From the NCBI GenBank assembly GCA_015068495.1, contig SVKL01000008.1:13892-77891 (forward strand): a stretch of 64,000 nucleotides of DNA. Direction: 5' to 3'. Positions 37,623 to 57,801 of the stretch are shown here, piece after piece; the stretch's first letter is position 1, and every line of letters begins with the position of its first letter. The notes beneath the pieces were generated by a model. That model did not search any database. It was not told where the DNA came from and saw nothing but the letters and a program-made list of their open reading frames with translations. The position numbers and the translations under genes were made by a program. The DNA comes from Oscillospiraceae bacterium (GTDB lineage Bacteria; Bacillota; Clostridia; Oscillospirales; Oscillospiraceae).

Positions 37623-38837
37623 ATGATGGGCTCTGAAATGAAGGTCAAGGCTGTTGGCTTTTGTGATGGTGTCTCTGTTTCCGCTATTGCCCCGTTGATG
37701 AATGATTTGTCCGTTGATGACGTATCTGAATATGCTGTTTTTCCCGGCTTTTGTGATGTGCACGTGCATTTCCGAGAGCCGGGATTTTCTTATAAAGAGA
37801 CCATTGAAAGCGGTTCAAAGGCATCTGCGCGGGGCGGTTACACAGCGGTTTGTACAATGCCCAACTTAAACCCCGTGCCGGACAGCGTGGCACATTTGGA
37901 CGAGCAGCTGAAACTGATTGAGGAGCAGGCGGTGATTCACGTCTACCCCTACGGCGCGATTACAGTGGGTGAGAAAGGTGAGCTGCTTGCAGATTTAGAG
38001 GGTATGGCGCCCAACTGTATTGCTTTTTCCGATGACGGACGAGGTGTGCAGAGCGATGATATGATGCGGCAGGCTATGCGCCGTGCCAAGGCACTGGGCA
38101 AAATGATTGTTGCCCACTGTGAGGTAAACGAGCTGCTGAAAGGCGGCTATATCCACGATGGTCAGTACGCAGCGGCTCATAACCACAAGGGCATCTGCAG
38201 CGCCAGCGAGTACGAACAAATCGCAAGAGATTTGCGCCTAGTGAGGGAAATCGGCTGCGCCTACCACGTGTGCCACATCTCCACGAAAGAGAGTGTGGAG
38301 CTGATCCGGCAGGCGAAGGCGGAAGGCTTGGATGTGACCTGTGAAACCGGCCCTCACTATCTGACGATGGACGACAGCTTCCTGCAGGAGGACGGCAGAT
38401 TCAAAATGAATCCTCCTTTGCGGGATAAAGCTGACAGGGAAGCGCTGGTTGCCGGTATTGTGGACGGCACAATCGATATGATTGCCACTGACCACGCGCC
38501 CCACAGCGCAGAAGAAAAGAGCAAGGGCTTAGCCGGCAGCGCCTTCGGTGTGGTTGGTATTGAAACAGCCTTCCCGGTGATGTATACCCACTTGGTAAAG
38601 TCCGGCGTGATTACTCTTGAAAAGCTTATTGACCTACTGAGCAATAACCCCCGTAAACGGTTTGGTCTGCCGGCAGGAAATGATTTTACAGTGTGGAATC
38701 TGAGTAAAGAATTTACAGTAGACCCGGCGCAATTCCTGTCTATGGGTAAGGCGACGCCCTTTGCTGGCTGGAAGTTAAATGGTGAATGTTTGCTGACCGT
38801 CTGCGACGGCAAGGCAGTGTATAAATTGGAGGAATGA
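37623..38837 (+). CDS. pyrC: Dihydroorotase (type I)
   Basis: DVHVHFREPG, TMPN, FSDDG, HVCHIST, KMNPPLR, ATDHAPH. Confidence 0.94.
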   Translation: MMGSEMKVKAVGFCDGVSVSAIAPLMNDLSVDDVSEYAVFPGFCDVHVHFREPGFSYKETIESGSKASARGGYTAVCTMPNLNPVPDSVAHLDEQLKLIEEQAVIHVYPYGAITVGEKGELLADLEGMAPNCIAFSDDGRGVQSDDMMRQAMRRAKALGKMIVAHCEVNELLKGGYIHDGQYAAAHNHKGICSASEYEQIARDLRLVREIGCAYHVCHISTKESVELIRQAKAEGLDVTCETGPHYLTMDDSFLQEDGRFKMNPPLRDKADREALVAGIVDGTIDMIATDHAPHSAEEKSKGLAGSAFGVVGIETAFPVMYTHLVKSGVITLEKLIDLLSNNPRKRFGLPAGNDFTVWNLSKEFTVDPAQFLSMGKATPFAGWKLNGECLLTVCDGKAVYKLEE

Positions 38838-38840
38838 AAA

Positions 38841-41800
38841 ATGGCAAAGAGAACGGACTTAAAGAAAATTCTGATTATCGGCTCCGGTCCTATCGTAATC
38901 GGTCAGGCCGCTGAATTTGACTATGCAGGTACACAGGCTTGCTTGGCGCTGAAGGAAGAGGGCTACGAGGTTGTCCTGTGCAACTCCAACCCTGCAACCA
39001 TTATGACGGATACTACCATTGCCGACAAGGTGTATATGGAGCCTCTGACACTGGAATATGTGGCAAAGATTATCCGCTACGAGCGTCCCGATGCCATTCT
39101 GCCCGGCATCGGCGGACAGACCGGTCTGAATCTTGTTATGCAGCTGGAGAAGAAGGGCGTTTTGAAGGAATGCCGCGTGGAGCTGCTGGGTACTTCCAGT
39201 GAATCCATCGAGCGGGCTGAGGACAGAGAACTGTTCAAGGAGCTGTGCCAGTCCATCGGCGAGCCTGTCATTCCCTCCGAGATTACCTATTCTATCGAGG
39301 AAGCGAAAGCGGCGGCTAAGCGGATTGGCTATCCTGTGGTGCTTCGTCCTGCCTTTACCTTGGGCGGCACCGGTGGCGGCTTTGCATATAGTGAAGAAGA
39401 GCTGGTGGAAATCGGCTTAAACGCATTTAAGCTGTCTCCTGTGCATCAGGTGCTCATTGAGAAATCCGTCAAGGGTTATAAGGAAATCGAATTTGAGGTT
39501 ATGCGTGACGGCAACGATCACGCCATCACCATCTGCGGTATGGAAAACATTGACCCTGTAGGCGTCCATACCGGCGATAGCTTGGTGGTTGCGCCGATTA
39601 TGACTCTGAGCGACCACGATTTGAAGATGCTGAACGATTCTGCTATCAAGATCATCAAGGAATTGAAGATTGCAGGTGGCTGTAACGTGCAGTTTGCCCT
39701 GAATCCCAATAGCTCTGAATACTACCTCATTGAGGTAAATCCCAGAGTTTCCCGTTCTTCCGCTTTGGCATCCAAGGCTTCCGGCTATCCCATTGCCCGC
39801 GTAACGGCTAAAATTGCCGTGGGTATGGCGCTGGAGGACATTAAGATTGCCAACACCAACGCTGCTTTCGAGCCGAAGCTGGACTATGTCATTGCCAAGC
39901 TGCCCCGTTTCCCCTTCGATAAGTTCACCTCTGCAACCAACCTGCTGGGCACCCAGATGAAAGCCACCGGTGAGGTTATGGGTATCGGCTCCAATCTGGA
40001 AGAAGCGCTGTTAAAGGGTATCCGTTCTCTGGAAATCGGCGCAAACCACCTGTACCTGTCCAAGTTTGACAATATGAGCGTGGAGGAGCTGCTGGACTAC
40101 ATCAAGCAGTTCCGTTCCGATAACATCTTTGCTATTGCGGAACTGCTGTACCACGGTGTTTCTGTGGAGAAGATTCACGAAATTACACAAATTACACCCT
40201 ACTTCCTGGAATCCATTCGCAAGATTATCGATATGGAGGAAGTCCTTCGGGTTAAGGTAAACGACGTGGATGCCCTGAAGCAGGCAAAGGTTATGGGCTT
40301 CAGCGACAGATATGTTGCACGGCTGTGGAAGTGCGCAGAAATGGATGTTTACAAGCTGCGTAAGGCCAACAATATGTTCCCGGTATTCAAGATGGTGGAT
40401 ACCTGCCATACCGGTGCATACATTCCTTATTTCTACTCCTCCTACACCGGAGAGAACACCTCTGTTCTTACCGATAAAAAGAAAATTGTGGTGCTGGGCG
40501 CCGGTCCTATCCGTATCGGTCAGGGTGTGGAATTTGACTATTCCACCGTTCACTCTGTAATGACCATTCGGGATGCAGGCTACGAGGCCATCATCATTAA
40601 CAACAACCCCGAAACCGTTTCCACCGACTACACCACCGCTGACAAGCTGTACTTTGAGCCACTGACACCTGAGGATGTTATGAACATCATTGAGTTTGAG
40701 AATCCTGTGGGTGTGGTTGCATCCCTTGGCGGTCAAACGGCTATCAATCTTGCTCAGCCTTTGGATGACCGGGGTGTAAAGATTATCGGCACAGATTGCG
40801 CTGCCATCGACAGAGCAGAGGACAGAAATGCCTTTGAAAACCTGCTCAACGACCTGAACATTCCCCGGGCTAAGGGTCAGGCTGTTACCAAGCTGGAAGA
40901 CGGTATTGCCGCCGCAGCGGAGATCGGCTATCCTGTGCTGGTGCGTCCTTCCTTTGTGCTGGGCGGCCGGGCAATGCAGATTGTTGCCAACGAGCAGCAG
41001 CTGCGTCACTACTTGCGTACCGCGGTTGAAATTGACGAGGACAAGCCCGTCTTGGTGGATAAGTATATTGAAGGCCGTGAAGTGGAGATTGACGCCATTT
41101 GCGACGGCCGGGATGTGTTTGTTCCCGGCATTATGGAGCTGGTAGAGCGTACCGGCGTCCACTCCGGCGACTCCATTTCTGTCTATCCCACCTTCTCTAT
41201 TTCCAACAAGGTTAAGGGTATCATCCTGCAGTATGCCAAAAAGCTGGGCTTGGGCATCGGCATTGTGGGTCTGTTCAATATCCAGTTCATCGTGGATAAG
41301 GACGATAATGTGTTTATTATCGAGGTAAATCCCCGTTCCTCCCGTACCGTGCCGTTCCTGAGTAAGGCAACCGGCTATTCCTTGGCAGATATTGCCACCG
41401 AGGTTATTTTGGGCAAGAGCCTGAAGGAGCAGGGCCTGTTTGACATCTACCCCGATGAGAAGGATCGCTGGTATGCCAAAGCACCTGTGTTCTCCTTCAA
41501 TAAAATCCGCGGACTGGACGCTTATCTGTCACCTGAAATGAAGTCCACCGGCGAAGCCATCGGCTACGACAGCACGATGAACCGCGCTTTGTATAAGGCG
41601 CTGCAGGCCTCCGGTATGCACCTGCAGAATTATGGTACTGTGCTGGTTACCATTGCAGACAAGGATAAGGAAGAGGCCCTGCCTTTGATTCGCCGCTTCT
41701 ATCAGCTGGGCTTCAACATTGAAGCAACTGAGGGCACTGCGGACTTCTTGAAAGCAAACGGAATCCGTACCCACAAGCTGGGCAAGATCGGCGACGGCAG

Positions 41801-42008
41801 CGAAGAGATTCCCAATGCGCTGCGTCAGGGCCACATTGCCTACGTGATTAACACCAAAGACCCCGGCAGCAACGGCAGTGACGGTGTGCAGATCCGTCAG
41901 ATTGCCACCGAGCATAATGTTTCTCTGTTCACTGCGTTGGATACCGTAAAGGTGCTGCTGGACGTTTTGGAAGAAACTACGCTGACCATTTCTACCATTG
42001 ATGCTTGA
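38841..42008 (+). CDS. carB: Carbamoyl-phosphate synthase large subunit
   Basis: GSGPIVIGQAAEFDYAG, two ATP-grasp halves, IEVNPRVSRSS and IEVNPRSSRT, C-terminal MGS domain. Confidence 0.97.
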   Translation: MAKRTDLKKILIIGSGPIVIGQAAEFDYAGTQACLALKEEGYEVVLCNSNPATIMTDTTIADKVYMEPLTLEYVAKIIRYERPDAILPGIGGQTGLNLVMQLEKKGVLKECRVELLGTSSESIERAEDRELFKELCQSIGEPVIPSEITYSIEEAKAAAKRIGYPVVLRPAFTLGGTGGGFAYSEEELVEIGLNAFKLSPVHQVLIEKSVKGYKEIEFEVMRDGNDHAITICGMENIDPVGVHTGDSLVVAPIMTLSDHDLKMLNDSAIKIIKELKIAGGCNVQFALNPNSSEYYLIEVNPRVSRSSALASKASGYPIARVTAKIAVGMALEDIKIANTNAAFEPKLDYVIAKLPRFPFDKFTSATNLLGTQMKATGEVMGIGSNLEEALLKGIRSLEIGANHLYLSKFDNMSVEELLDYIKQFRSDNIFAIAELLYHGVSVEKIHEITQITPYFLESIRKIIDMEEVLRVKVNDVDALKQAKVMGFSDRYVARLWKCAEMDVYKLRKANNMFPVFKMVDTCHTGAYIPYFYSSYTGENTSVLTDKKKIVVLGAGPIRIGQGVEFDYSTVHSVMTIRDAGYEAIIINNNPETVSTDYTTADKLYFEPLTPEDVMNIIEFENPVGVVASLGGQTAINLAQPLDDRGVKIIGTDCAAIDRAEDRNAFENLLNDLNIPRAKGQAVTKLEDGIAAAAEIGYPVLVRPSFVLGGRAMQIVANEQQLRHYLRTAVEIDEDKPVLVDKYIEGREVEIDAICDGRDVFVPGIMELVERTGVHSGDSISVYPTFSISNKVKGIILQYAKKLGLGIGIVGLFNIQFIVDKDDNVFIIEVNPRSSRTVPFLSKATGYSLADIATEVILGKSLKEQGLFDIYPDEKDRWYAKAPVFSFNKIRGLDAYLSPEMKSTGEAIGYDSTMNRALYKALQASGMHLQNYGTVLVTIADKDKEEALPLIRRFYQLGFNIEATEGTADFLKANGIRTHKLGKIGDGSEEIPNALRQGHIAYVINTKDPGSNGSDGVQIRQIATEHNVSLFTALDTVKVLLDVLEETTLTISTIDA

Positions 42009-42016
42009 TTTAATGT

Positions 42017-42042
42017 TGTAGCGCGGGGGCTTGCCCCCGCCG
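42017..42042 (+). repeat. GTAG-type REP-like palindrome
   Basis: TGTAG-CGCGGGGGC-TT-GCCCCCGCCG in the carB-pyrK gap. Confidence 0.55.
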
Positions 42043-42070
42043 AACAATACTATGTCAAACGGAGGAAACA

Positions 42071-42808
42071 ATGAAACAATCGAGTTTTACTGTTGTCAGC
42101 AATACCTCTCTGACTGACAATGTTTATAAAATGGTTCTGCAGGGCGACGTATCGGCTATTACTGCGCCGGGCCAGTTTGTCAACCTCAAGCTGGAGGGCC
42201 TGTATCTGCGCCGTCCCATCTCCGTGTGTGATTTGGATGGGGACAAGCTGACCATTGTTTATAAGGCGGTAGGTAAGGGAACAGAGCAGATGTCCCGTAT
42301 GACAGCAGGGGAGAAGCTGGATATTCTCACCGGCTTGGGCAACGGCTATGACCTGAGCCTGTCCGGCGAGAAGCCTGTGCTGCTGGGTGGCGGCGTAGGC
42401 GTGCCTCCTATGTATCTGCTTGCCAAAGAATTGCTGAAACAGGGCAAAAAAGTTTCTGTTATCTTGGGATTCAACACAAAATCCGAGATTTTCTACGAAG
42501 AAGAATTTGAAAAGCTTGGCTGCAATGTAACCGTTACAACCGTGGACGGTAGCTTTGGCACAAAAGGCTTTGTCACCACTGCATTGGAAGGGGTGGACTA
42601 TTCCTACTTCTATACCTGCGGTCCTGAGCCAATGCTGAAGGCTGTATATAAGGCATCCAATACTTCTGGGCAGATGAGCTTTGAAAAGAGGATGGGGTGT
42701 GGCTTTGGCGCATGTATGGGCTGCTCCTGCAAGACCCTCACCGGCTACAAGCGTATCTGCAAGGAAGGCCCTGTGATGAAAAAGGAGGAAATTCTATGGG
42801 AAGATTAA
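42071..42808 (+). CDS. pyrK: Dihydroorotate dehydrogenase electron transfer subunit
   Basis: PGQFV, RRPIS, GGGVG, CGPEPM, MGCGFGACMGC 2Fe-2S motif. Confidence 0.94.
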   Translation: MKQSSFTVVSNTSLTDNVYKMVLQGDVSAITAPGQFVNLKLEGLYLRRPISVCDLDGDKLTIVYKAVGKGTEQMSRMTAGEKLDILTGLGNGYDLSLSGEKPVLLGGGVGVPPMYLLAKELLKQGKKVSVILGFNTKSEIFYEEEFEKLGCNVTVTTVDGSFGTKGFVTTALEGVDYSYFYTCGPEPMLKAVYKASNTSGQMSFEKRMGCGFGACMGCSCKTLTGYKRICKEGPVMKKEEILWED

Positions 42809-43707
42809 GTGTTGACCTGTGTGGAATTACCCTTGATAATCCTGTAATTCCTGCCTCCGGCACCTTCGGCTACGGCTATGAGTATGCTGAAATTTATGAT
42901 ATCAACTGCCTTGGCACGTTCTCTTTTAAGGGCACAACCAAGGAGCCCCGTTTCGGCAACCCTACGCCCCGGATCGCTGAATGTACCGCCGGTATGATCA
43001 ATGCCGTTGGCTTGCAGAATCCCGGTGTGGAAAAGGTTATTGCCGAGGAACTACCGAAGCTGAAAAAATGCTTCCACAAGCCTGTTATGGCAAATATCAG
43101 CGGTTTTGGGGTAGAGGAGTATGCCTACACCTGCGAAAAGCTGGATAAGGAGGCGCAAGTCGGCTGGCTGGAAGTGAACGTCAGCTGTCCCAATGTCCAC
43201 GGCGGCGGTATGAGCTTCGGTACTGACCCGAAAGCAGCCGCTGAGGTGACGAAGGCAGTAAAGAAGGTCACCACCAAGCCGGTGATTGTAAAGCTGTCCC
43301 CCAACGTGACGGACATCGTTTCTATTGCAAAAGCCTGTGAAGATGCCGGCGCTGACGGTATCAGCCTGATTAACACAATGCTGGGTATGCGCATTGACCT
43401 GAAAACCCGCAAGCCGGTAATTGCCAACAAGATGGGCGGCTTCTCCGGCGCAGCAATTTTCCCTGTGGCGGTGCGTATGGTCTATCAGGTCGCCAATGCC
43501 GTCAAGATTCCCGTGGTGGGTATGGGCGGCGTAAGCAGTGCTGAGGACGTGATTGAGATGATGCTGGCTGGCGCAACTGCCGTTGAGGTGGGCGCAGCAA
43601 ACCTTGTGAACCCCTGCATTTGTCGGGATATTATCGAAGAACTTCCCGCAGTTATGGATAAATACAGAATCAATACATTAAGTGAAATTATCGGAGGTGC
43701 GAAATAA
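42796..43707 (+). CDS. pyrD: Dihydroorotate dehydrogenase B catalytic subunit
   Basis: [36 protein letters not shown]; ATG 42796 after AGGAGG. Confidence 0.95.
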
Positions 43708-44405
43708 TGGGTAAGGACGTGATTGTAGCCTGTGATTTTGCCAGCGCAGAGCAGACCTTTGCGTTTTTGGACAAGTTCACCGGCCGGAAGCCTTTCGTGA
43801 AAATCGGCATGGAGCTGTACTACGCAGAAGGCCCTGCCATCGTCAAGGAAATCAAGGCAAGAGGTCATAAGATTTTCTTGGATTTGAAGCTCCACGACAT
43901 TCCCAACACTGTCAAAAAGGCAATGGCAGTTTTGCGGAATCTGGATGTGGATATCACAAACCTGCACGCCGCCGGCACCAAGAATATGATGCGCGCCGCC
44001 TTGGAGGGCTTGACCCGTGAGGACGGCACCCGTCCGCTGCTGATTGCTGTGACCCAGCTGACCTCCACCGATCAGGAGAGTATGGAAAAGGACCTGCTCA
44101 TTGAAAAGCCTATTGATCAGGTGGTTATGCACTACGCCAAATGCGCCGAAGAGGCAGGTCTCGACGGCATCGTATGCTCACCGCTGGAGGCAGGCAAGGT
44201 CCACGATACCTGCGGCAAGAGCTTTTTGACTGTTACCCCCGGTGTCCGCTTTGCTGACGGCGATGTGGGTGACCAGAAGCGGGTTATGACCCCTGCGCAG
44301 GCTAAGGAAATCGGCTCCGACTATATTGTTGTGGGCCGTCCGATTACTGCTGCCGCCGACCCCGTGGCCGCCTACGAGCGCTGCATTGATGAATTCTGCG
44401 ACTAA
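43707..44405 (+). CDS. pyrF: Orotidine-5-phosphate decarboxylase
   Basis: [34 protein letters not shown]. Confidence 0.96.
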
Positions 44406-44408
44406 AAT

Positions 44409-44487
44409 TGTAGGGACCGGCGTCCTCGACGGTCCTATTGCAGAAGTCCGCTTTGCTGACGGACTGTCCGGGAGGCCAGTCCCTACA
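44409..44487. repeat. Inverted doublet of GTAG-type REP units (REPIN/BIME-like)
   Basis: TGTAGGGACCGGCGTCCTCGACGGTCC (44409-44435) and the reverse complement of TGTAGGGACTGGCCTCCCGGACAGTCC (44461-44487). Confidence 0.75.
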
Positions 44488-44512
44488 CATTTATCTTCAA
44501 AGGAGAACCATT

Positions 44513-45166
44513 ATGGAAGCCTATAAAAGAGAATTCATTGAATTCCTGCAGGATGCAGGTGTGTTGAAATTTGGCGATTTTACAGCCAAATCCGGCCGTA
44601 AAATTCCTTATTTTGTCAATGCCGGTATGATTAAGACCGGTGACCAAATTACCAAAATGGGCGAGTTCTACGCCAAGGCTTATTTTGACAAGCTGGGTAA
44701 AAAGCAGGCTGTCCTGTACGGACCTGCCTATAAGGGTATTTCTCTGTCCATTTCTGCCGCTGTGGCGCTGTCCCGTAACGGTCTGAATGTTCCTTTCTTC
44801 TTTAACCGTAAGGAAGTGAAAGACCACGGTGAAGGCGGTACATTCGTAGGCTACGTTCCTCAGGCCGGCGAAGAAATCGTCATAATTGAAGACGTAATTA
44901 CAGCCGGCACTGCTATCCGTGAGTCTATGGAAATCCTCAGCCACTTGGATGGCACGAAAGTTATTGCCACCTTCATTATGGTTGACCGGAAAGAGAAGGG
45001 TCAGACCGAGAAGGGTGCTATGCAGGAGATTGAAGAGCAGTTCGGCTTCCCTGTGTACTCTGTTGTGGACGTTTATGACATTATCGAGTATTTGGAGGAA
45101 GACCCTGCCAACGAAGAAAACGTTACCCGTATTAAGAACTATCTGGCTGTGAATGGAGCGAAATAA
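44513..45166 (+). CDS. pyrE: Orotate phosphoribosyltransferase
   Basis: [40 protein letters not shown]; ATG 44513 after AAGGAG. Confidence 0.95.
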
Positions 45167-46254
45167 TGAGAAGCTTGATTGACATTGTAGATTTTTCCGT
45201 TGAGGAAATTCAGCAGCTGCTGGAGACTGCCTGCGACATCAGCGAAAATCCTGCAAAGTATGCAGAACGCTGCCGTGGCAAGAAGCTGGCAACGCTGTTC
45301 TATGAGCCTTCCACCCGTACCCGCCTTAGCTTTGAAGCGGCTATGTATGAGTTGGGCGGTAACGTGCTGGGCTTTAGCGAGGCGGCATCTTCTTCTGCCG
45401 CAAAGGGAGAGAGCATGGCAGACACTGCAAAAATGCTCTCCTGCTATGCGGATATTATGGCAATCCGTCATCCCAAGGAGGGTGCGCCTTTCGTAGCTGC
45501 AACCAATGCCACCATTCCCGTTATCAATGCCGGTGATGGCGGCCATTGCCACCCCACACAGACCTTGGCTGACCTGCTGACCGTTTATCGGGAAAACGGA
45601 AGACTCCACGATTTGACCATCGGCTGCTGTGGTGATTTGAAATATGGCAGAACGGTGCACTCCTTGATATCTGCTTTTTCACGGTACGACAATATCAAGT
45701 TTGTCCTGATTTCTCCCGAAGAGCTGAAGCTACCCAAGTACGTAAAGTATGAGGTGCTGGATAAAAACGGTATGCAGTATGTGGAAACAACCTCTTTGGA
45801 GGAGGCAATGCCGCAGCTGGATGTTTTGTATATGACCCGTATCCAACGGGAGCGCTTTGACAGCTTTGACGAGTATGAGCGTTTGAAGGACAGCTATATT
45901 CTGACACCTGAGAAGATGGCAGCGGCTAAGCCCACTATGCGCGTGCTGCACCCCCTTCCCAGAGTGAATGAAATCAGCGTAAAGGTGGATGAAGATCCCC
46001 GGGCAGCCTATTTCCGCCAGGCGCTGAACGGCAAGTATATGCGTATGGCGCTGATTCTCAAGCTGCTCAAAGAGGCTGAGGAAGGCAAGCAGATGGAGCC
46101 GGTGAATGCTGTGGAGAACAGTGCTCTTATCTGTGATAACCCCCGCTGTATTTCCTCTACCGAGCAGGAGCTTCCCCACAGATTTAAGCTGGTGGATGCA
46201 GAACGTGGCATTTACCGGTGCATCTATTGCGAGGGTAAAAAAACCTTGGGTTGA
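45166..46254 (+). CDS. pyrB: Aspartate carbamoyltransferase with a fused C-terminal PyrI-type zinc domain
   Basis: [29 protein letters not shown]; extension CDNPRC...RCIYCE. Confidence 0.94.
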
Positions 46255-46323
46255 TATCTTTCACAAAACAAAGGTTTCAAACGCCAAATTTCGTGTAAAA
46301 AACAGAGAAACGCACGGCTTTGC

Positions 46324-46352: not shown

Positions 46353-46369
46353 GTTTACAGTGATGAATA

Positions 46370-46443
46370 TCGTTCTTTGCGACTGACGGAAATGTGGAGC
46401 ACCACAAGGGACCAAAGAATGTAAAAGCCGACCGTCTGGGCGC
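46370..46443 (+). ncRNA. ZMP/ZTP (pfl) riboswitch
   Basis: P1 TTCTTTG/CAAAGAA, GCGACTGACGGA junction, P2 GTGG/CCAC, P3 GCCGACCGTCTGGGC whose loop can pseudoknot with GACGG; upstream of purE. Confidence 0.92.
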
Positions 46444-46478
46444 ATTTGACAGTAACCTTAGTCAAGTGCGCCCTTTTT
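46438..46478 (+). terminator. Expression-platform terminator of the ZTP riboswitch
   Basis: GGGCGCATTTGAC / GTCAAGTGCGCCC + TTTTT; the 5-prime arm overlaps P3. Confidence 0.85.
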
Positions 46479-46986: not shown

Positions 46987-47028
46987 TTTCTGAGTTATAC
47001 ACTCACTATGATAAAGGAGAAATTGATT

Positions 47029-49163: not shown

Positions 49164-49177
49164 ATAAGGAGAAGCGT

Positions 49178-50230
49178 ATGGAACATAAGAATTCCCAGTC
49201 TGCCAGCTATGCTGCTGCCGGTGTGGACATTACCGCCGGCTATAAGGCTGTTGAACTGATGAAGAAGCATATCAAGCGCACAAAAAATGAGGGCTGCTTG
49301 GACGATGTTGGCGGCTTTGGCGGCTGCTTTGGTCTGAACATTGCCGGTATGGAAGAGCCTGTGCTGGTCTCCGGTACAGACGGCTGCGGCACAAAAGTCA
49401 AGCTTGCTATTTTAATGGACAAGCACGATACCATCGGTATTGACGCGGTGGCAATGTGCGTTAACGATATTATCTGCTGCGGCGCAAAGCCTTTGTTTTT
49501 CCTTGATTACATTGCTTGCGGTAAGAATTATCCCGAGAAAATCGCGGCCATTGTGGGCGGCGTAGCAGAGGGCTGCGTTCAGTCCGGCGCAGCGCTCATC
49601 GGCGGTGAAACTGCCGAGCATCCCGGCTTGATGCCGCTTGAAGACTATGACCTTGCAGGCTTTGCAGTTGGTGTTGTGGACAAGAAGAAAATTATCGACA
49701 ACACCCGTATGGCAGCAGGGGATGTGGTGATTGCGCTGGCATCTACCGGTATCCATTCTAACGGTTTCTCTCTGTGCCGTAAGGTGTTTGATATTGATAA
49801 CAACCCGGCAGAGCTGTATGTTGCCCGTGAGGAGTTGGACGGTAAGAGTGTTGCAGAAGCGTTGCTCGTACCTACACGTATCTACGTAAAGTCCATCCTT
49901 GCTCTGTTGGAGCAGGTGGATGTAAAGGGTATCTCCCACATCACCGGCGGCGGCTTTTATGAGAATATTCCCCGTTCCATCCCCGATGGCTTGGGTGCAG
50001 TAATCGAAAAGAATGCTGTTAAGGTGCTGCCTATTTTCGATATGATTGCCAAGACCGGCAATATCCCTGAGCGTGATATGTTCAACACCTACAATATGGG
50101 TGTGGGTATGAGCGTCGTGGTAAAGCCTGAGGAAGTAGAGAAGGCATTGGAAATCCTTACCGCCCACGGGGAAAATGCCTATGTGATCGGTAAGATTGTA
50201 GCCTCTGACGAGAAGATTACCATTGTGTGA
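49178..50230 (+). CDS. purM: Phosphoribosylformylglycinamidine cyclo-ligase
   Basis: YAAAGVDI, GTDGCGTK, AMCVND, GGETAEHPG, SHITGGG. Confidence 0.97.
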   Translation: MEHKNSQSASYAAAGVDITAGYKAVELMKKHIKRTKNEGCLDDVGGFGGCFGLNIAGMEEPVLVSGTDGCGTKVKLAILMDKHDTIGIDAVAMCVNDIICCGAKPLFFLDYIACGKNYPEKIAAIVGGVAEGCVQSGAALIGGETAEHPGLMPLEDYDLAGFAVGVVDKKKIIDNTRMAAGDVVIALASTGIHSNGFSLCRKVFDIDNNPAELYVAREELDGKSVAEALLVPTRIYVKSILALLEQVDVKGISHITGGGFYENIPRSIPDGLGAVIEKNAVKVLPIFDMIAKTGNIPERDMFNTYNMGVGMSVVVKPEEVEKALEILTAHGENAYVIGKIVASDEKITIV

Positions 50231-50238
50231 GGTAGGAA

Positions 50239-50835
50239 ATGGTGAAAGCGAGAATTGCTGTGCTGGTGTCCGGCGGCGGCACGAACCTGCAGGCGCTGAT
50301 TGACGCGCAAGGCAGCGGAATTATTCACAGCGGAGAAATCTGCCTTGTGATTTCCAATAATCGGGATGCCTATGCTTTGCAGCGCGCGGCAAATGCGGGA
50401 ATAGCCACCGAGGTTGTCCTGAAAAAGGAACTGGGCAGCCAAGCCGCATTTGAAGAGAAAATCAAAGAATTGCTCACCGAAAATAGGATTGACATCATTG
50501 TTCTTGCGGGCTTTATGTCCATTTTAAGTGAGGCGTTCACCTCCTGCTATCCCAAGCGGATTCTCAATGTCCACCCGTCGCTGATTCCGTCTTTTTGCGG
50601 TGAGGGCTTTTATGGTCTCCGGGTTCACGAGGCAGCGCTTAATTATGGCGTGAAGGTCACCGGCGCAACCGTTCACTTTGTTAACGAGATTCCCGACGGC
50701 GGTGAGATCATTCTCCAAAAGGCTGTGGAAATTCAGCCGGAGGACACACCTGAAACCCTGCAAAAACGGGTGATGGAACAAGCAGAATGGAAGATTTTAC
50801 CTGCCGCAGTTGAGCAGGTTTGCAGTATGCTGTGA
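50239..50835 (+). CDS. purN: Phosphoribosylglycinamide formyltransferase
   Basis: SGGGTNLQA, LAGFM, NVHPSLIP, GATVHFV..DGG. Confidence 0.96.
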   Translation: MVKARIAVLVSGGGTNLQALIDAQGSGIIHSGEICLVISNNRDAYALQRAANAGIATEVVLKKELGSQAAFEEKIKELLTENRIDIIVLAGFMSILSEAFTSCYPKRILNVHPSLIPSFCGEGFYGLRVHEAALNYGVKVTGATVHFVNEIPDGGEIILQKAVEIQPEDTPETLQKRVMEQAEWKILPAAVEQVCSML

Positions 50836-50851
50836 GAAAGGAATTTGCAAT

Positions 50852-51565
50852 ATGAATGTTTATGAAGTTGGCTCTCTTGCTGAGAAGCTGTCTACCAATG
50901 TGTATCCCGGCCGTGGCATTGTGTTAGGTGTAACTCCCGACGGCACTAAGTCTGTTGCTGCTTATTTCATTATGGGCCGCAGCGTCAATAGTCGCAACCG
51001 TGTGTTTGTACAGGAGCCGGACGGTATCCGCACCGAAGCTCATGATCCCAGCCTGATGAAAGACCCTCATCTGATTATTTACCATCCTGTCCGTGAAGCA
51101 GGCTGTGGTTTGATTGTTACCAACGGTGACCAGACCGATACCATTTGGGAATACCTTGCCAAGGGCGAAAGCTGGGAAGCTGCTCTGCGTACCCGTTGTT
51201 TCGAAGATGACGGCCCTAACTGGACACCTCGTATTTCCGGCTTGCTGGCAGGTGACGGAAGCTACAAGATGTCCATTTTGAAGTCTGCTGATGCAGAGGG
51301 CACAGCCTGCGCAAGATTTTTCTATGAGTATCCTGCAATCGCCGGACTGGGTCACTTTATCCACACCTATGTGTGCGATGGTAACCCCGTAATCCCCACA
51401 TTCCAAGGGGAGCCGGAGCGTGTGGCTATGGATAACGATATGGATGCCTTTGCGGAAATGCTGTGGAACAACTTGAATGAAGACAATAAAATCTCCCTGT
51501 TCGTCCGTTACACTGATTTGAAGACCGGCAGCTACGAGCAGAAGATTTACAACAAACATAACTAA
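50852..51565 (+). CDS. purO: Stand-alone IMP cyclohydrolase, PurO-like (Ntn fold)
   Basis: YPGRGI, YFIMGRS.NSRNR, LIIY, VTNGDQTD, FEDD.PNWTPRISG; ATG 50852. Confidence 0.85.
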   Translation: MNVYEVGSLAEKLSTNVYPGRGIVLGVTPDGTKSVAAYFIMGRSVNSRNRVFVQEPDGIRTEAHDPSLMKDPHLIIYHPVREAGCGLIVTNGDQTDTIWEYLAKGESWEAALRTRCFEDDGPNWTPRISGLLAGDGSYKMSILKSADAEGTACARFFYEYPAIAGLGHFIHTYVCDGNPVIPTFQGEPERVAMDNDMDAFAEMLWNNLNEDNKISLFVRYTDLKTGSYEQKIYNKHN

Positions 51566-51577
51566 GGAGTAGGGAAG

Positions 51578-52762
51578 ATGAAAGAGTTTGAACTGAAATA
51601 CGGCTGTAACCCCAATCAAAAGCCTGCAAAGATTTATATGCACGACGGCACCGACCTGCCCATCCAGATTCTCAACGGCCGCCCCGGCTTTATTAATTTC
51701 CTGGATGCCTTCAACTCTTGGCAGCTGGTGAAGGAGCTGAAGGAAGCTACCGGTATGTGCGCTGTTACCTCTTTTAAGCACGTTTCTCCTACTTCTGCCG
51801 CTGTTGGCAAGAAGCTGCCTATAGAGCTGAAAAAGGCTTGCTTTGTGGAAGATATCGAAGGCTTGGATGAGAATCCTTTGGCTTGCGCATATGCCCGTGC
51901 CCGTGGTGCAGACCGTCTGTGCTCCTTTGGCGACTGGGTGGCACTGAGTGACACCTGCGACGCGCTGACAGCCAAGCTCATTGCCCGCGAGGTATCCGAC
52001 GGCGTGATTGCTCCCGGCTACACCGATGAGGCGCTGGAGATTCTGAAGACCAAACGTGGCGGCAACTATAACGTAGTTGCTATTGACCCCAACTTCGTTC
52101 CTGCTGAACAGGAAACCAAGCAGGTGTTCGGTATTACTTTCCAGCAGGGCCGCAACAACTTCAAAATTGACAATGCACTTTTGGAGAACATTGTTACTGA
52201 TAATAAGAACTTTACCGAGGACGCAAAGACTGACTTGATCATCTCCCTGATTACCCTGAAGTACACACAGTCTAATTCCGTCTGCTTTGCTTATGACGGA
52301 CAGGCTATCGGTGTTGGTGCCGGTCAGCAGTCCCGTGTGCACTGCGTAAGACTTGCAGGCGGTAAGGCTGACACTTGGTTCCTCCGCCAGCACCCCAAGA
52401 CCTTGAATCTTCCTTTCCGCGAGGACTTGGGCCGTCCCGGCCGTGACAATGCCATCGACGGCTATATCAACGGCAACGAGGAGGATGTCTGCGCTGAGGG
52501 TATCTGGCAGAACTACTTTACCACCCGTCCCGAGCCTCTGACCGAGGCTGAAAAGCGTGCATTCTTGGATGCGCAGACCGGTGTTGCGCTGGGTTCTGAC
52601 GCTTTCTTCCCGTTCCCGGACAGTATTAAGCGTGCTAAAGCCTCCGGTGTTTCCTACGTCGCTGAGCCCGGCGGCTCTATCCGTGATGACCTTGTGATTG
52701 CTGAGTGCAATAAGAATAATATGGTTATGGCATTCACCGGAATGCGTCTGTTCCACCACTAA
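51578..52762 (+). CDS. purH: AICAR transformylase lacking the IMP cyclohydrolase domain
   Basis: LKYGCNPNQ, FKHVSP, KYTQSNSV, GAGQQSRVHC, SDAFFPF, GMRLFHH; no MGS-like N-terminal domain. Confidence 0.92.
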   Translation: MKEFELKYGCNPNQKPAKIYMHDGTDLPIQILNGRPGFINFLDAFNSWQLVKELKEATGMCAVTSFKHVSPTSAAVGKKLPIELKKACFVEDIEGLDENPLACAYARARGADRLCSFGDWVALSDTCDALTAKLIAREVSDGVIAPGYTDEALEILKTKRGGNYNVVAIDPNFVPAEQETKQVFGITFQQGRNNFKIDNALLENIVTDNKNFTEDAKTDLIISLITLKYTQSNSVCFAYDGQAIGVGAGQQSRVHCVRLAGGKADTWFLRQHPKTLNLPFREDLGRPGRDNAIDGYINGNEEDVCAEGIWQNYFTTRPEPLTEAEKRAFLDAQTGVALGSDAFFPFPDSIKRAKASGVSYVAEPGGSIRDDLVIAECNKNNMVMAFTGMRLFHH

Positions 52763-52837
52763 AATACCTTTGCCACACCGTCTTTTGCGGTGTGGCAATC
52801 GGTCTGTTTTACGAATCTGACATTTTGGAGAGTATCT

Positions 52838-54106
52838 ATGAAAATATTGGTTGTTGGCGGTGGCGGAAGAGAACATGCCATCATTAAAAAACTGAAAGAG
52901 AATAAGACAGTTACAGAAATTTTTGCAACCCCCGGCAATGGCGGTATTGCCAAGGATGCTACCTGTGTAGACATCGGCGCAAAGGAGATTGATAAAATTG
53001 TTGCCTTTGCAGTTGAGAATGCCATTGACTATGCGGTGGTTGCTCCCGATGACCCTCTGGTGCTGGGTTGCGTAGACGCATTGGAGGAGAAGGGGATTCC
53101 TTGCTTTGGACCTCGCGCCAATGCTGCCATTATTGAAGGCAGTAAGGTTTTTTCCAAAAACCTGATGAAAAAATATAATATTCCCACTGCAGCGTATGAA
53201 GTGTTCACCGATATGGATGCGGCAATTTCCTATTTGGAAACTGCTCCAATTCCTACGGTCATCAAGGCTGACGGACTTGCATTGGGCAAGGGCGTTATTA
53301 TTGCGGAAACCCGTGAGGATGCCAAGGCTGCTGTGAAATCTATGATGTCCGATAAGGTCTTCGGCAAAAGCGGTGACCAGATTGTCATTGAGGAATTCCT
53401 CACCGGTCCTGAGGTGTCTGTGCTTGCCTTTACCGACGGCAAGACAGTGAAGCCTATGATTTCCTCTATGGACCATAAGCGGGCAGGGGATAACGATACA
53501 GGCCTCAACACCGGCGGCATGGGCACGGTTGCTCCCAACCCCTACTACACTGCCGATATTGCTAAGGTGTGTATGGAAACCATTTTCCTGCCTACCATCG
53601 CCGCAATGAATGCCGAGGGCCGTACCTTTAAGGGCTGCTTGTACTTTGGCTTGATGCTCACCCCCAACGGCCCTAAGGTTATTGAGTACAACTGCCGTTT
53701 CGGCGACCCGGAGACGCAGGTGGTGCTGCCGCTGCTGGAAAGTGATCTGCTCACCGTTATGCAGGCAACCACCAACGGCACCTTGGCAGAAACCGAGGTT
53801 AAATTTGCCGACAAGAACGCCTGCTGCGTGATTATGGCGTCCAAGGGTTATCCCACCGCCTACGAAAAGGGCTTTGAGATGACCGTTCCGGAGGCAATTT
53901 GGAATAATGTCTATGTGGCAGGCGCTGCATTAAAGGACGGAAAGCTTCTGACAAACGGCGGCCGTGTCCTTGGCGCAACTGCTGTTGCTGACACCTTAGA
54001 GAACGCCATTAACGAGGCTTATAAAATGGTAGAAACCATTCATTTTGACAATGCTTATTATCGTCACGATATTGGCGCGAAGGCTATGAAAGCCGGGAGG
54101 AATTAA
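52838..54106 (+). CDS. purD: Phosphoribosylamine--glycine ligase
   Basis: VVGGGGREHA, KADGLALGKGV, EYNCRFGDPE, TNGGRVL; ATG 52838. Confidence 0.97.
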   Translation: MKILVVGGGGREHAIIKKLKENKTVTEIFATPGNGGIAKDATCVDIGAKEIDKIVAFAVENAIDYAVVAPDDPLVLGCVDALEEKGIPCFGPRANAAIIEGSKVFSKNLMKKYNIPTAAYEVFTDMDAAISYLETAPIPTVIKADGLALGKGVIIAETREDAKAAVKSMMSDKVFGKSGDQIVIEEFLTGPEVSVLAFTDGKTVKPMISSMDHKRAGDNDTGLNTGGMGTVAPNPYYTADIAKVCMETIFLPTIAAMNAEGRTFKGCLYFGLMLTPNGPKVIEYNCRFGDPETQVVLPLLESDLLTVMQATTNGTLAETEVKFADKNACCVIMASKGYPTAYEKGFEMTVPEAIWNNVYVAGAALKDGKLLTNGGRVLGATAVADTLENAINEAYKMVETIHFDNAYYRHDIGAKAMKAGRN

Positions 54107-54108
54107 CA

Positions 54109-57100
54109 TTGGTTTATAGAGTATATGTAGAGAAAAAAGAAGCGCTTGCAAACGAAGCAAAGGCTCTTTTGAACGATGCCCGCAACCTGCTGGGGATTAA
54201 GGCGCTGGAGAATGTTCGCCTGCTGAACCGCTATGATGCAGAAAATATTACAAAAGAGCTGTTCGATTATGCAATCGATACCGTGTTTTCTGAGCCCCAG
54301 CTGGACATTGCCACAGCTGAATATGAGTTAGCAGGCGCTACGGTGTTTGCCGTTGAGCCGCTGCCCGGTCAGTTTGACCAGCGAGCCGACTCCGCTGCTC
54401 AGTGTATTCAGATTATTTCTCAAGGTGAGCGTCCGCTGATTCGCTCCGCTAAGGTGTACGGTCTGTACGGCAAGCTGACAGAGGAAGAAATCACCGCGAT
54501 TAAAAAACACGTGATTAACCCTGTGGAATGCCGTGAAGCAGAGCTGACCCTGCCCGAAACGTTGAAAGCAGATTACGCTATCCCGCAGTCCGTTGCTACC
54601 GTTGACGGCTTCATCGGATTAGACGAAAAGGGCCTTTCTGATTTGCTGGACAAGCTGGGTCTTGCGATGGATCTGGACGATTTGAAGTTCCTGCAGAACT
54701 ACTTCCGTGACGAAGAAAAGCGCGACCCTACGATTACCGAAATCCGTGTTGTGGATACCTACTGGTCTGACCACTGCCGTCACACTACCTTCTCCACCAT
54801 CATTGACGATGTAAAAATTTCCGATCCCGCAGTGGCTGCTGCCTACAAGCGTTATTTGGATGCCCGTGTGGAAGTCTATGGAGAAGAGAAGGCTGCAAAG
54901 CGTCCTCAGACACTGATGGATATTGCCACTATCGGCGCAAAGACTTTGAAGAAGCGTGGATTGCTGCCCGAGCTGGACGAGAGCGAGGAAATCAACGCCT
55001 GCTCTATCCACGTTACTGCAAAGGTAAATGGCGAAGATCAGGACTGGCTGCTGATGTTCAAGAACGAGACCCACAACCATCCCACCGAGATTGAGCCTTT
55101 TGGCGGCGCAGCCACCTGTATCGGCGGCTGTATCCGTGACCCTTTGTCCGGCCGTGCATACGTCCATCAAGCAATGCGTGTTACCGGCGCAGCTGATCCC
55201 CGCAAGCCTCTGAATGAGACCATTCCCGGCAAGCTGCCCCAGCGTAAGCTGTGTCAGACTGCCGCAGCCGGCTATTCCTCATACGGCAACCAAATCGGTC
55301 TTGCTACCGGTCACGTTGCAGAAATCTATCACGATGGCTACGCCGCAAAGCGCTTGGAGTGTGGCGCAGTTGTTGGCGCAGCGCCTGCCTACAACGTACG
55401 CCGTGAGCGTCCCGCAGCCGGCGATGTGGTTGTGCTGCTGGGTGGCCGTACCGGCCGTGACGGTATCGGCGGCGCTACCGGTTCTTCCAAGAGTCACAAT
55501 ATGAAATCCCTGACCACAATGGCTTCCGAAGTCCAAAAGGGTAATGCTCCCGAGGAACGGAAGATTCAGCGCTTGTTCCGGGATAGCGCTGTTACCCGTT
55601 TGATTAAGCGCTGCAACGACTTTGGCGCAGGCGGTGTGTCTGTTGCTATCGGTGAGTTGGCTGCCGGTCTGCAGATTGACTTGGATGCTGTTCGCAAGAA
55701 GTATGATGGCTTGGACGGTACCGAAATCGCTATCTCCGAATCTCAGGAGCGTATGGCAGTTGTGGTTGCAGCTGAGGATGCGGATACCTTTATCGCAGCA
55801 GCCCAGAAAGAAAATCTGGAAGCTTATCGTGTGGCTGTGGTCACCGAAGAAGAAAGAATGGTGATGGTCTGGAAGGGTCAGACAGTTGCAAATCTGTCCC
55901 GCGCATTTTTGGACACCAACGGCGCCAGCAAGCATACCAAGGTTGACGTTACCGAAAAGGACCTGTCCGTGCTGAGCAACGCCCTGTACGGCAGCCTGCG
56001 TGAGATGGCAGGGGATTTGAAGACTGCCAGCCGCAGAGGCCTTGTGGAGCGTTTTGACGGTAGTATCGGCGCAGGCTCTGTGCTGATGCCCTTTGGCGGC
56101 AAAACACAGACCACTCCCGCCCAAGCAATGGCAGCTGTGCTGCCCGTCCTGCCCGGTCAGGAAACCAGTCAGGGCAGTGTAATGGCTTGGGGTCTAGATC
56201 CCGATATGATGAGCGTGGATCCTTACACCGGCTCCCGCGCCGCCATCTATACTTCTATGGCAAAGCTGGTTGCAGCCGGCGCTGACTATAAGAAAGCTTA
56301 CCTGACCCTACAGGAGTTCTTTGAAAAGCTGAAAGCTGAGCCTGCCCGCTGGGGCAAGCCCTTTGCAGCGCTCCTTGGCGCACTGGATGCCCAGCTGGAG
56401 CTGGGTGCTGCTGCCATCGGCGGTAAGGATTCTATGTCCGGTTCCTTTATGGATATGGACGTGCCGCCCACGCTGATTTCTTTTGCAATCGCTCCCATTG
56501 ATAAGGAGCAGGTGCTCACTCCCGAATTTAAGACCGCCGGCAATCCGGTTTACCTCTTCGGACCTACCGATGAGACCGCTGAGAGCCAAAAGCAGGCTTG
56601 GGAATACTTCCACCAGCTGCACCTTGCCGGTAAAGTCAACGCCGGCTGGGCGGTGGAGAATGGCTTGGGCGAAGCGGTGATGAAGATGTCCTTCGGTAAC
56701 CGCATCGGTTTTGCCTCCTGCGGCGCTGTGGGCGAGGAATGGCACAAGAACCTCTACGGCTTTATTGTGGCTGAGCTGACCGAAGATGTTGACCTGCCCG
56801 GCGTGCTGAAGATTGGCGAAACCACTGCCGAAGCAGCAATTGTTTTGGACGGTGACAGCGCATCTATCGACGAGCTGCTTGCCATCAATGAAGGCATTTT
56901 GGAGGATGTATATACCACTGTTGTTCCTGAGGATAAGGGTCAGATTCCTGCCTTTAACTACACCGGCACGGTTGCGAAGGCACCTGCTGTAAAGTGTGCA
57001 AAGCCCAAGGTGCTGATCCCTGTATTCCCCGGTACCAACTGTGAGTTTGACTCCGCCCGTGCGGTTATTGCAGCAGGCGCTGACGCAGAAATCGCCGTAA

Positions 57101-57801
57101 TTCGCAACCTGACCGCTGATGATGTTGCCAAGAGCGTGGAAAGCGTAGCTGCGAAGATTGCAGACAGCCAGATGATTTTCATTCCCGGCGGTTTCTCCGG
57201 CGGTGACGAGCCGGACGGCTCTGCCAAGTTCATTACCGCCTTCTTCCGCAACCCTGCCATCAAGGAGCAGGTGACAAAGCTGCTGGAAGAGCGGGACGGC
57301 TTGATGTGCGGCATCTGTAACGGCTTCCAAGCGCTGATTAAGCTGGGCTTGGTGCCTTACGGCAAGATTATTGATACCGACGAGAATTGCCCCACCTTGA
57401 CCTTCAATACCATTTCCCGTCACCAGTCCAAAATTGTCCGTACCCGTATCGCATCCAACAAGTCGCCTTGGCTGAGGCTGATGAATGTGGGTGACGTTGT
57501 GAATGTTCCCATTTCCCACGGCGAGGGTCGCTTCTATGCATCTGAGGAATTGGCAATGAAATTGGCTGAAAACGGTCAGATTGCCACCCAGTATGTGGAC
57601 TTGGACGGCAATCCCACTATGGATACCGCTTTCAACCCCAACGGCTCTCTGTTTGCTATCGAGGGTATTACCTCTCCCGACGGCAGAGTCATCGGTAAGA
57701 TGGGTCACAGCGAGCGTATCGGCGCAGGCCTTTACAAGAACGTACCTGGTAACTACGATATCCGTATGTTTGAAGCCGCAGTTAAATATTTTAAGGGCTA
57801 A
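54109..57801 (+). CDS. purL: Fused large FGAM synthase (PurS-PurL-PurQ)
   Basis: WSDHCRH, KNETHNHPTEIEPFGGAAT, DFGAGG, ISESQERM; GATase FPGTNCE, GICNGFQ, GHSER. TTG start. Confidence 0.97.
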   Translation: MVYRVYVEKKEALANEAKALLNDARNLLGIKALENVRLLNRYDAENITKELFDYAIDTVFSEPQLDIATAEYELAGATVFAVEPLPGQFDQRADSAAQCIQIISQGERPLIRSAKVYGLYGKLTEEEITAIKKHVINPVECREAELTLPETLKADYAIPQSVATVDGFIGLDEKGLSDLLDKLGLAMDLDDLKFLQNYFRDEEKRDPTITEIRVVDTYWSDHCRHTTFSTIIDDVKISDPAVAAAYKRYLDARVEVYGEEKAAKRPQTLMDIATIGAKTLKKRGLLPELDESEEINACSIHVTAKVNGEDQDWLLMFKNETHNHPTEIEPFGGAATCIGGCIRDPLSGRAYVHQAMRVTGAADPRKPLNETIPGKLPQRKLCQTAAAGYSSYGNQIGLATGHVAEIYHDGYAAKRLECGAVVGAAPAYNVRRERPAAGDVVVLLGGRTGRDGIGGATGSSKSHNMKSLTTMASEVQKGNAPEERKIQRLFRDSAVTRLIKRCNDFGAGGVSVAIGELAAGLQIDLDAVRKKYDGLDGTEIAISESQERMAVVVAAEDADTFIAAAQKENLEAYRVAVVTEEERMVMVWKGQTVANLSRAFLDTNGASKHTKVDVTEKDLSVLSNALYGSLREMAGDLKTASRRGLVERFDGSIGAGSVLMPFGGKTQTTPAQAMAAVLPVLPGQETSQGSVMAWGLDPDMMSVDPYTGSRAAIYTSMAKLVAAGADYKKAYLTLQEFFEKLKAEPARWGKPFAALLGALDAQLELGAAAIGGKDSMSGSFMDMDVPPTLISFAIAPIDKEQVLTPEFKTAGNPVYLFGPTDETAESQKQAWEYFHQLHLAGKVNAGWAVENGLGEAVMKMSFGNRIGFASCGAVGEEWHKNLYGFIVAELTEDVDLPGVLKIGETTAEAAIVLDGDSASIDELLAINEGILEDVYTTVVPEDKGQIPAFNYTGTVAKAPAVKCAKPKVLIPVFPGTNCEFDSARAVIAAGADAEIAVIRNLTADDVAKSVESVAAKIADSQMIFIPGGFSGGDEPDGSAKFITAFFRNPAIKEQVTKLLEERDGLMCGICNGFQALIKLGLVPYGKIIDTDENCPTLTFNTISRHQSKIVRTRIASNKSPWLRLMNVGDVVNVPISHGEGRFYASEELAMKLAENGQIATQYVDLDGNPTMDTAFNPNGSLFAIEGITSPDGRVIGKMGHSERIGAGLYKNVPGNYDIRMFEAAVKYFKG

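Follow-up and report, generated by a model that had tools for sequence, protein, structure and literature searches.

De novo synthesis of purines and pyrimidines is textbook glutamine chemistry. The carbamoyl-phosphate synthetase (CPS) of Escherichia coli (PDB 1BXR/1JDB) is a heterodimer of CarA and CarB, and the large subunit CarB by itself yields carbamoyl phosphate from ammonia in vivo (Rubino et al. 1987, as cited in PMC3017870). CPS with a blocked tunnel is still active on ammonia, and mitochondrial CPS I takes external ammonia (PMC4655335). Similarly, mutants of E. coli PurF at the catalytic residue Cys1 lost the use of glutamine and kept that of ammonia (Mei & Zalkin 1989, as cited in PMC3261824). 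Here we describe two adjacent nucleotide-synthesis operons at positions 37623–57801 of a 64,000-nucleotide stretch of DNA from an Oscillospiraceae bacterium (GenBank assembly GCA_015068495.1, contig SVKL01000008.1), hereafter called the window. The operons encode an orphan CarB, a PurF paralogue without Cys1 (PurF') and a PurC variant (PurC'). The assembly that holds the window (G000) has 1.77 Mb in 40 contigs and is 92.9% complete; among named organisms it is closest to Faecousia and to Oscillospiraceae metagenome-assembled genomes from ruminant, human and chicken guts. The window probably carries an "ammonia set" of enzymes that belongs to many Oscillospirales-type gut and rumen Clostridia, is fed by ammonia, and became the sole route after the loss of a linked glutamine-dependent block. 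From gene content, residue changes, their conservation and their distribution we infer catalysis by these enzymes and ammonia as their substrate.

Both operons are encoded on the plus strand and are separated by a 243-nucleotide spacer. The gene order is pyrC-carB-pyrK-pyrD-pyrF-pyrE-pyrB in the first operon and purE-purC'-purF'-purM-purN-purO-purH-purD-purL in the second. All sixteen genes are intact, closely packed, and kept between species. A preliminary description of the window had reported a CarB without carA, a PurF with a dead glutaminase domain and a PurL with an intact catalytic triad, and all three observations were borne out by the analysis of the whole genome that follows.

The carB gene (38841–42008, plus strand) starts 4 nucleotides past the end of pyrC. 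Its product is a full-length large subunit (family TIGR01369/NF003671; 1403 bits against a TIGR01369 cut-off of 1027) with 45% identity to E. coli CarB. The Pfam domains CPSase_L_D1, D2, D3 and MGS were recognised in it, so that both ATP-grasp halves and the oligomerisation and MGS-like domains are present, as in the E. coli enzyme, together with a conserved internal tunnel gate. It is the single CarB of the assembly. The profile search of the assembly for CarA (TIGR01368) reached 24.6 bits at most, and tblastn searches of the assembly with CarA of a congener and of E. coli returned zero matches. The absence of CarA from the genome, together with the loss of residues that are invariant in paired CarBs, speaks against assigning the protein to the CarA-CarB heterodimer (EC 6.3.5.5). 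The window CarB also matches human CPS1 (PDB 5DOT/5DOU) with 802 bits and shares the Cys/Ala/Ala gate with mitochondrial CPS I. However, CPS I has a fused inactive glutaminase-like moiety and requires N-acetylglutamate, whereas the small-subunit moiety is wholly absent here.

CarB sequences were compared in an alignment of three groups: thirteen CarA-paired CarBs including that of E. coli, twelve orphan CarBs from the clade of G000, and a single orphan of independent origin. The paired CarBs share 372 invariant columns. The orphan consensus differs from them in 14 of 214 columns within residues 1–553 and in 1 of 158 columns within the C-terminal half (Fisher p = 0.003, computed from sequences that are not independent of each other). 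The clearest orphan-specific sites, in E. coli numbering, are E260, Y261, R265, R435, E535/F536, which are deleted, and E552; the window CarB carries the changes E260D, Y261L, Q262K, R265N, R435N, a two-residue deletion at E535/F536, and E552T. In contrast to these sites, the catalytic residues and the gate residues C232, A251 and A314 are unchanged in the orphan CarBs, and the tunnel residues E217, C232, A251, N283, N301, A314 and M378 are identical in all twelve; the gate residues are those named in PMC4655335.

The carA-less lineages G026/G128, G124, G069 and, in part, G055 have the same CarB positions altered in differing ways. Changes at these sites have thus arisen independently in at least three or four lineages without carA, as release from a partner would produce. 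The reading frame extracted as CarB from G110 was the wrong one and was left out of this comparison. The preliminary description had spoken of eroded small-subunit contacts. This holds for the segment 253–266 and for the change of DTCAAEF to DTCHT--, which are orphan-specific, but not for the short IANTNAA loop before FEP, which CarBs paired with CarA share, both in congeners and in G040, and which is therefore not erosion. Two genomes (G145 and G160, each 91% complete) have no detected carA, yet keep all CarB contact residues, and their carA may simply be unassembled.

The product of purF' (47739–49163, plus strand) scores 160.5 bits against a TIGR01134 cut-off of 350, with a match limited to profile positions 80–380, and starts with MGGFFG. 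Aligned to the Bacillus subtilis enzyme, the PurF of the iron-sulphur type (PDB 1AO0/1GPH), and to canonical PurFs of relatives, it has Gly2 at the position of Cys1. The glutamine loop RYxTxG with Arg73/Tyr74 is gone with an eight-residue deletion, HNGN reads TVGV (Asn101 to Val), and SDTE reads NSTE (Asp127 to Ser). PurF' shares with the B. subtilis enzyme the two-domain layout, the operon position, the DDSIVRGT loop, which binds 5-phosphoribosyl 1-pyrophosphate (PRPP), and the four cluster cysteines; C235, C387, C466 and C469 align with the iron-sulphur ligands and are invariant or nearly so in the family. It differs from that enzyme in belonging to a natural family from which Cys1, Asn101, Asp127 and the glutamine loop are all missing, and also in a DYHSHLG motif, a flexible loop of another sequence, and about 25 additional residues inserted close to the C-terminus. 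No second purF was detected in the assembly, in which the preliminary description had left room for a canonical copy, and PurF' is the sole PurF homologue of the genome.

PurF' belongs to a large family, with 572 clusters at 50% identity found in a full-library search at E < 1e-30. Every full-length representative begins with M-[GSTA]-G-x-x-G and lacks the cysteine, and G(T/V)DYHSHLG is a common motif. Databases label these proteins plainly as amidophosphoribosyltransferase. In 80 loci retrieved from other genomes, purF' is part of a pur operon; wherever neighbours were detected, it is preceded by purE and by purC or purC' and followed by purM, and no extra conserved gene accompanies it in these loci. 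PurF' is the only PurF of the isolate Evtepia gabavorous KLE1738. In the literature that we searched, the only PurF without Cys1 was an archaeal paralogue with serine in place of the cysteine, Mlab_0150 (Brown et al. 2011, PMC3261824). Mlab_0150 shares the lack of the nucleophile with PurF', but it was described as a recent duplicate beside a normal purF and dismissed as not being a PurF (PMC3261824), whereas many genomes have PurF' and no other PurF. Its operon position and sole-copy status suggest that PurF' forms phosphoribosylamine. A canonical purF and purF' stand in tandem on contig 177 of G045 (2235–4893).

The third unusual gene, purC' (47008–47715, plus strand), scores 112.3 bits against a TIGR00081 cut-off of 189.9, with a match that spans only profile positions 4–219 of 279. 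PurC' shares its fold family and its place between purE and purF with the synthetase PurC (E. coli 2GQS, Thermotoga maritima 1KUT, human PAICS), which forms succinylaminoimidazolecarboxamide ribonucleotide (SAICAR), and it keeps the motifs YxGKxK, DxKxEFG and DE..S....R for ATP and carboxyaminoimidazole ribonucleotide (CAIR). It differs from PurC in that the C-terminal DKDRFR motif with its Lys/Arg pair is missing (the sequence reads DPMTLNK), the C-terminus is about 17 residues shorter, and a conserved seven-residue insertion, GVFDPG(E/S)N, stands next to the TGxxG (Thr) loop. Among the fetched loci with a PurC recognised by motif, 25 have the insertion without the motif, 12 show the reverse, and one has neither. 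In human PAICS, K228, R232, T40 and K191 hold the carboxylates of aspartate (PMC9376930). Mapped by spacing, K228 and R232 would be the Lys/Arg pair missing from PurC'.

Genomes whose only PurC is PurC' can be without purB. The distribution was determined in an order sample of 131 genomes of the same order, each at least 90% complete. The purB gene is absent from 25 of the 37 genomes that have PurC' only (13 families) and from 1 of the 84 with canonical PurC (p = 8e-16); this lone exception is an assembly of 410 contigs. All 25 purB-less PurC'-only genomes also lack purA. Within the 33 purA-less genomes, all seven whose PurC is canonical have kept purB, and 25 of the 26 with PurC' have lost it (p = 2e-6); four further genomes agree with the rule. 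The loss of purB had appeared to track PurF', perfectly so in a set of 41 genomes, and this association was rejected by the order sample (14 versus 12 genomes), in which the loss follows PurC' and not the PurF type.

A search of G000, G014, G037 and G039, four genomes with PurC' as the only PurC and no purB, with PF00206 (Lyase_1) revealed nothing beyond ArgH or AspA. A hidden PurB among the Lyase_1 proteins of the source genome was rejected, since these are only AspA and ArgH, and the genes adjacent to purL, which encode an ECF sigma factor and a DUF4179 anti-sigma-like protein, were rejected as the missing lyase. In the simplest reading, the PurC' route to aminoimidazolecarboxamide ribonucleotide (AICAR) appears to do without PurB. 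Tentatively, at somewhat less than even chances, PurC' may be a CAIR-ammonia ligase, or "AICAR synthetase", which would convert CAIR, ATP and ammonia to AICAR with no need for aspartate or PurB. Such an activity may represent a third ammonia-fed step beside those of orphan CarB and PurF'. The reaction could also draw on another amine donor, or a non-homologous lyase could act on SAICAR. Our literature search found no paper that describes a PurB-independent PurC' route.

The remaining nitrogen genes of the source genome extend the pattern beyond the two steps for which it had been proposed. The preliminary description had named pyrG, guaA and glmS as genes of interest; pyrG and glmS, as well as purA and purB, were not found in the 92.9%-complete assembly, and GuaA lacks its glutaminase domain. 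This short form, GuaA' (333 residues; contig 19, L025:2157-3158, plus strand), consists of the ATP-pyrophosphatase and dimerisation part only and corresponds to residues 194–512 of full-length GuaA. The same short form is present in G014 and G037. A GNAT acetyltransferase is encoded upstream of GuaA', and no glutaminase remnant was found there. The separate ATP-pyrophosphatase part resembles the two-subunit GMP synthase of archaea, with the difference that no GuaA glutaminase subunit was found in the source genome. Genes for the ammonium transporter Amt and for PII proteins were found neither in G000 nor in G014, G037 and G039. The genes carA, canonical purF, pyrG, glmS, purA, purB and amt are equally absent from G014, G037 (100% complete) and G039 (98%).

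Glutamine synthetase, PurL, AsnB and HisH remain linked to glutamine in the source genome. PurL (54109–57801, plus strand) is a single-chain formylglycinamidine ribonucleotide (FGAM) synthase (TIGR01857, 1716 bits, above the cut-off) with an intact Cys/His/Glu glutaminase triad (GICNGFQ, GHSER). AsnB and HisH are of the glutamine type, with intact nucleophiles. The class I glutaminase domains besides that of PurL are only HisH and a free-standing peptidase C26 protein (219 residues; contig 9, L027:2011-2670, plus strand), whose Cys/His/Glu set is intact (GICRGCQ, WHPER) and which is the sole glutaminase of the genome without an assigned role. A 524-residue protein on contig 10 with a weak GATase_7 match is asparagine-synthase-like, has a polysaccharide-related neighbourhood and does not bear on the question. 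The genome further encodes a type III glutamine synthetase, GdhA, AspA, NagB and ArgG/ArgH. The presence of GdhA, NagB and AspA and the lack of amt and PII genes fit passive uptake of ammonia in an ammonia-rich habitat. The absence of amt, purA, purB, pyrG and glmS suggests a habitat rich in ammonia and in some nucleobases or amino sugars.

Larger congeners, such as G022, hold both sets of genes: the same pyr and pur operons as the window, and a linked block that depends on glutamine and aspartate. The orphan CarB and PurC' of G022 are 91% and 92% identical to those of G000. The block is located on contig 69 of G022 (174–20141, minus strand) and contains, on one strand, the genes for glutamine synthetase III, amt, asnB, purC, purA, purB, guaA, glmS, pyrG, purF, carA and carB, of which purC and purF are canonical and guaA is full-length. 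This block of eleven nitrogen genes beside glutamine synthetase III looks like a low-ammonia regulon; no riboswitch or other Rfam element reached threshold on it.

The whole block is missing from about ten small genomes of the genus and also from G037 (100% complete) and G039 (98%), which belong to other families. A broken block, intermediate between the two states, was observed in G002 (99% complete; contig 26, 817–10473), in which purF lies in two frames, carA, glmS and guaA are gone, and carB is reduced to its last ~290 codons beside pyrG, whereas purA, purB and purC are intact. Since the glutamine-type copies are linked with amt in one block and the source genome has none of them, few loss events are indicated rather than two independent ones. 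The preliminary description had proposed parallel loss of glutamine dependence at two steps within the genome. We abandoned this view, because orphan CarB and PurF' are old and widespread paralogue lineages, found side by side with carAB and purF in larger congeners, and not products of recent decay, and the linked glutamine-dependent block has gone as one. The absence of the block leaves the glutaminase-free enzymes as the only route of the source genome, which is small. The expectation that both pathways enter on free ammonia is upheld insofar as both entry enzymes are glutaminase-free sole copies in conserved operons; the use of ammonia itself we infer.

The order sample shows how far these traits extend. 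No carA was found in 37 of the 131 genomes, 27 of which, from 13 families, have a full-length CarB. PurF' is the only PurF in 35 genomes, which are of high quality and keep the rest of the purine pathway, whereas a canonical PurF occurs in 83, in 21 of which PurF' is present as well, and 13 have neither. An earlier suggestion that the loss of carA would co-occur with PurF of the MGGFFG type was supported in the 109 genomes with a CarB and some PurF: 18 are both PurF'-only and orphan-CarB, 14 and 9 show the respective single trait, and 68 show neither (odds ratio 9.7, Fisher p = 3e-6, statistics that ignore phylogeny). The double state occurs in eight families. Outside the genus, the traits also separate, as 14 PurF'-only genomes have carA and 9 orphan-CarB genomes have canonical purF. 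The two traits are associated yet separable.

Based on these observations, a mechanism of ammonia entry can be proposed, in which an old set of ammonia-type paralogues was retained after the loss of the linked glutamine-type block. Free ammonia would enter CarB through the open tunnel mouth that CarA otherwise covers, and would then pass the gate of C232, A251 and A314 to reach carboxyphosphate. PurF' would convert PRPP and ammonia to phosphoribosylamine at its intact phosphoribosyltransferase site. GuaA', which comprises the ATP-pyrophosphatase part only, could aminate xanthosine monophosphate with ammonia, NagB would provide glucosamine 6-phosphate from ammonia, and glutamate dehydrogenase would assimilate ammonia. 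The type III glutamine synthetase would supply glutamine to PurL, AsnB and HisH.

The enzymes may instead still depend on glutamine hydrolysed in trans by the peptidase C26 protein, by the PurL domain, or by an unrecognised partner of CarB or PurF'. The catalytic residues kept in both the C26 protein and PurL are compatible with this, as is the N-terminal domain of PurF', which is conserved rather than decaying. However, the CarA-facing positions of CarB differ among the independent orphan lineages without forming a single new conserved interface, none of the 80 loci offers an additional conserved gene with purF', the C26 gene is unlinked to the pyr and pur operons, and the deleted glutamine loop of PurF' is a part of the ammonia channel. 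We regard a glutaminase in trans as unlikely. Hardly more probable is that PurF', orphan CarB, or both are regulatory subunits, pseudoenzymes or enzymes acting on other substrates, while the organism lives on salvaged bases and nucleosides. With purA, purB, pyrG and glmS absent, salvage is required anyway, 13 of the 131 genomes manage without any PurF, and PurF' coexists with canonical PurF or stands in tandem with it in some genomes. This alternative is difficult to reconcile with sixteen intact, tightly packed genes conserved across species, with the invariance of the CarB catalytic residues and of the PRPP loop and iron-sulphur cysteines of PurF', with PurF' as the sole PurF in 35 high-quality genomes that have the remaining pathway, and with the control of the pur operon by a ZTP riboswitch. 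It is very improbable that the absences are artefacts of assembly or binning and that the glutamine-dependent block is really present. The source genome is 92.9% complete and in 40 contigs, the missing genes are clustered in congeners, so that one lost contig could take them all, and G145 and G160 show that carA can be missing where every contact residue is kept. Nevertheless, the same genes are missing from about ten further species-level genomes of the genus and from G037 (100% complete), G039 (98%) and G031 (99%), and so many good-quality genomes with the same absences make a binning artefact unlikely. Furthermore, GuaA' is a distinct short gene and not a fragment of full-length guaA, and the changes at the CarB contact sites show a long life without CarA.

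The reading in which both operons form an ammonia-fed set is therefore preferred, and several observations weigh against it. Because purA, purB, pyrG and glmS are absent, some precursors must be salvaged, and the pyr and pur operons thus need not carry all the flux. PurF' accompanies a canonical PurF in 21 of the 131 genomes, and in 5 of the 80 loci the two are in tandem; the coexistence means that PurF' could be a subunit or a regulator, and the tandem copies could serve as alternates or assemble into a mixed oligomer. The N-terminal domain of PurF', once a glutaminase, holds its own conserved motif, G(T/V)DYHSHLG; it is not simply decaying and might bind a partner or a ligand. PurF' of the source genome is only 65% identical to that of G022, compared with 76–92% for its operon neighbours. 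The location of R265 and Y261 at the CarA-CarB tunnel junction is our assumption, which draws on the work of Raushel and Holden on E. coli CPS. The co-occurrence of the two traits was not corrected for shared descent. Finally, the source genome is 93% complete in 40 contigs, and when the regions on either side of the block in G007 and in G022 were mapped onto it in search of an empty site, most of their open reading frames were unmatched or scattered over contigs; with synteny to congeners so poor, no empty site is demonstrable.

If the ammonia-fed reading is correct, about one quarter of one of the most abundant bacterial orders of the gut and rumen would start both nucleotide pathways from free ammonia. 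Many of these bacteria would carry two alternative sets of genes, one for low ammonia, in linkage with amt and glutamine synthetase, and one for high ammonia, and lineages with small genomes would retain only the one for high ammonia. Metabolic models of nitrogen flow in the gut and rumen would change, and old observations that many rumen bacteria need ammonia would be accounted for. At present, these genes are annotated as plain "amidophosphoribosyltransferase", "carB" and "purC". A natural CarA-free CPS and a natural Cys-free PurF would serve the study of how ammonia tunnels open, and the pattern of PurC' and purB points to a reaction of a central pathway that may be new and is directly testable.

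The other genes of the pyr operon, all on the plus strand, encode recognisable enzymes of the pathway. PyrC (37623–38837) is a dihydroorotase (NF006837, 500.9 bits; TIGR00857, 370.9 bits). PyrK (42071–42808; NF000799, 245.9 bits) is the electron-transfer subunit of dihydroorotate dehydrogenase B, and it is followed by the dihydroorotate dehydrogenase 1B PyrD (42697–43707; NF005574, 436.9 bits), whose open reading frame is given from the first possible start and whose family match starts at residue 35. PyrF (43707–44405; NF001273, 295.8 bits) is an orotidine monophosphate decarboxylase, and PyrE (44438–45166; TIGR00336, 151.6 bits, with the match starting at residue 35) is an orotate phosphoribosyltransferase. 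PyrB (45166–46254; TIGR00670, 353 bits) is fused to the zinc domain of PyrI only (PF02748, PyrI_C, residues 321–357). The relative G037 has a separate PyrI of 137 residues, in contrast to the C-terminal zinc domain fused to PyrB in the window.

The leader of the pur operon contains a ZMP/ZTP riboswitch aptamer (46369–46448, plus strand; RF01750, 60.8 bits with a gathering threshold of 39), which ends 50 nucleotides upstream of purE. ZMP is AICAR, for which histidine synthesis is another source. The pur operon is thus tuned by an intermediate of uncertain source in a genome that lacks purB. The remaining genes of the operon, also on the plus strand, are purE (46498–46986; TIGR01162, 187.6 bits), purM (49178–50230; TIGR00878, 429 bits), purN (50239–50835; TIGR00639, 205.5 bits), a purO-type inosine monophosphate (IMP) cyclohydrolase gene (50810–51565; PF07826, 200 bits, with the domain starting at residue 32), purH with the AICAR formyltransferase domain only (51578–52762; NF005492, 652.8 bits), and purD (52790–54106; TIGR00877, 519.5 bits). 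The final two purine steps are thus divided between a PurO-type cyclohydrolase and a formyltransferase-only PurH (window 50810–52762), a split known from some prokaryotes (PMC6486802). Elsewhere in the window, a glycine riboswitch aptamer (26993–27081, minus strand; RF00504, 55.6 bits) and a tRNA gene (28219–28291, minus strand) were found.

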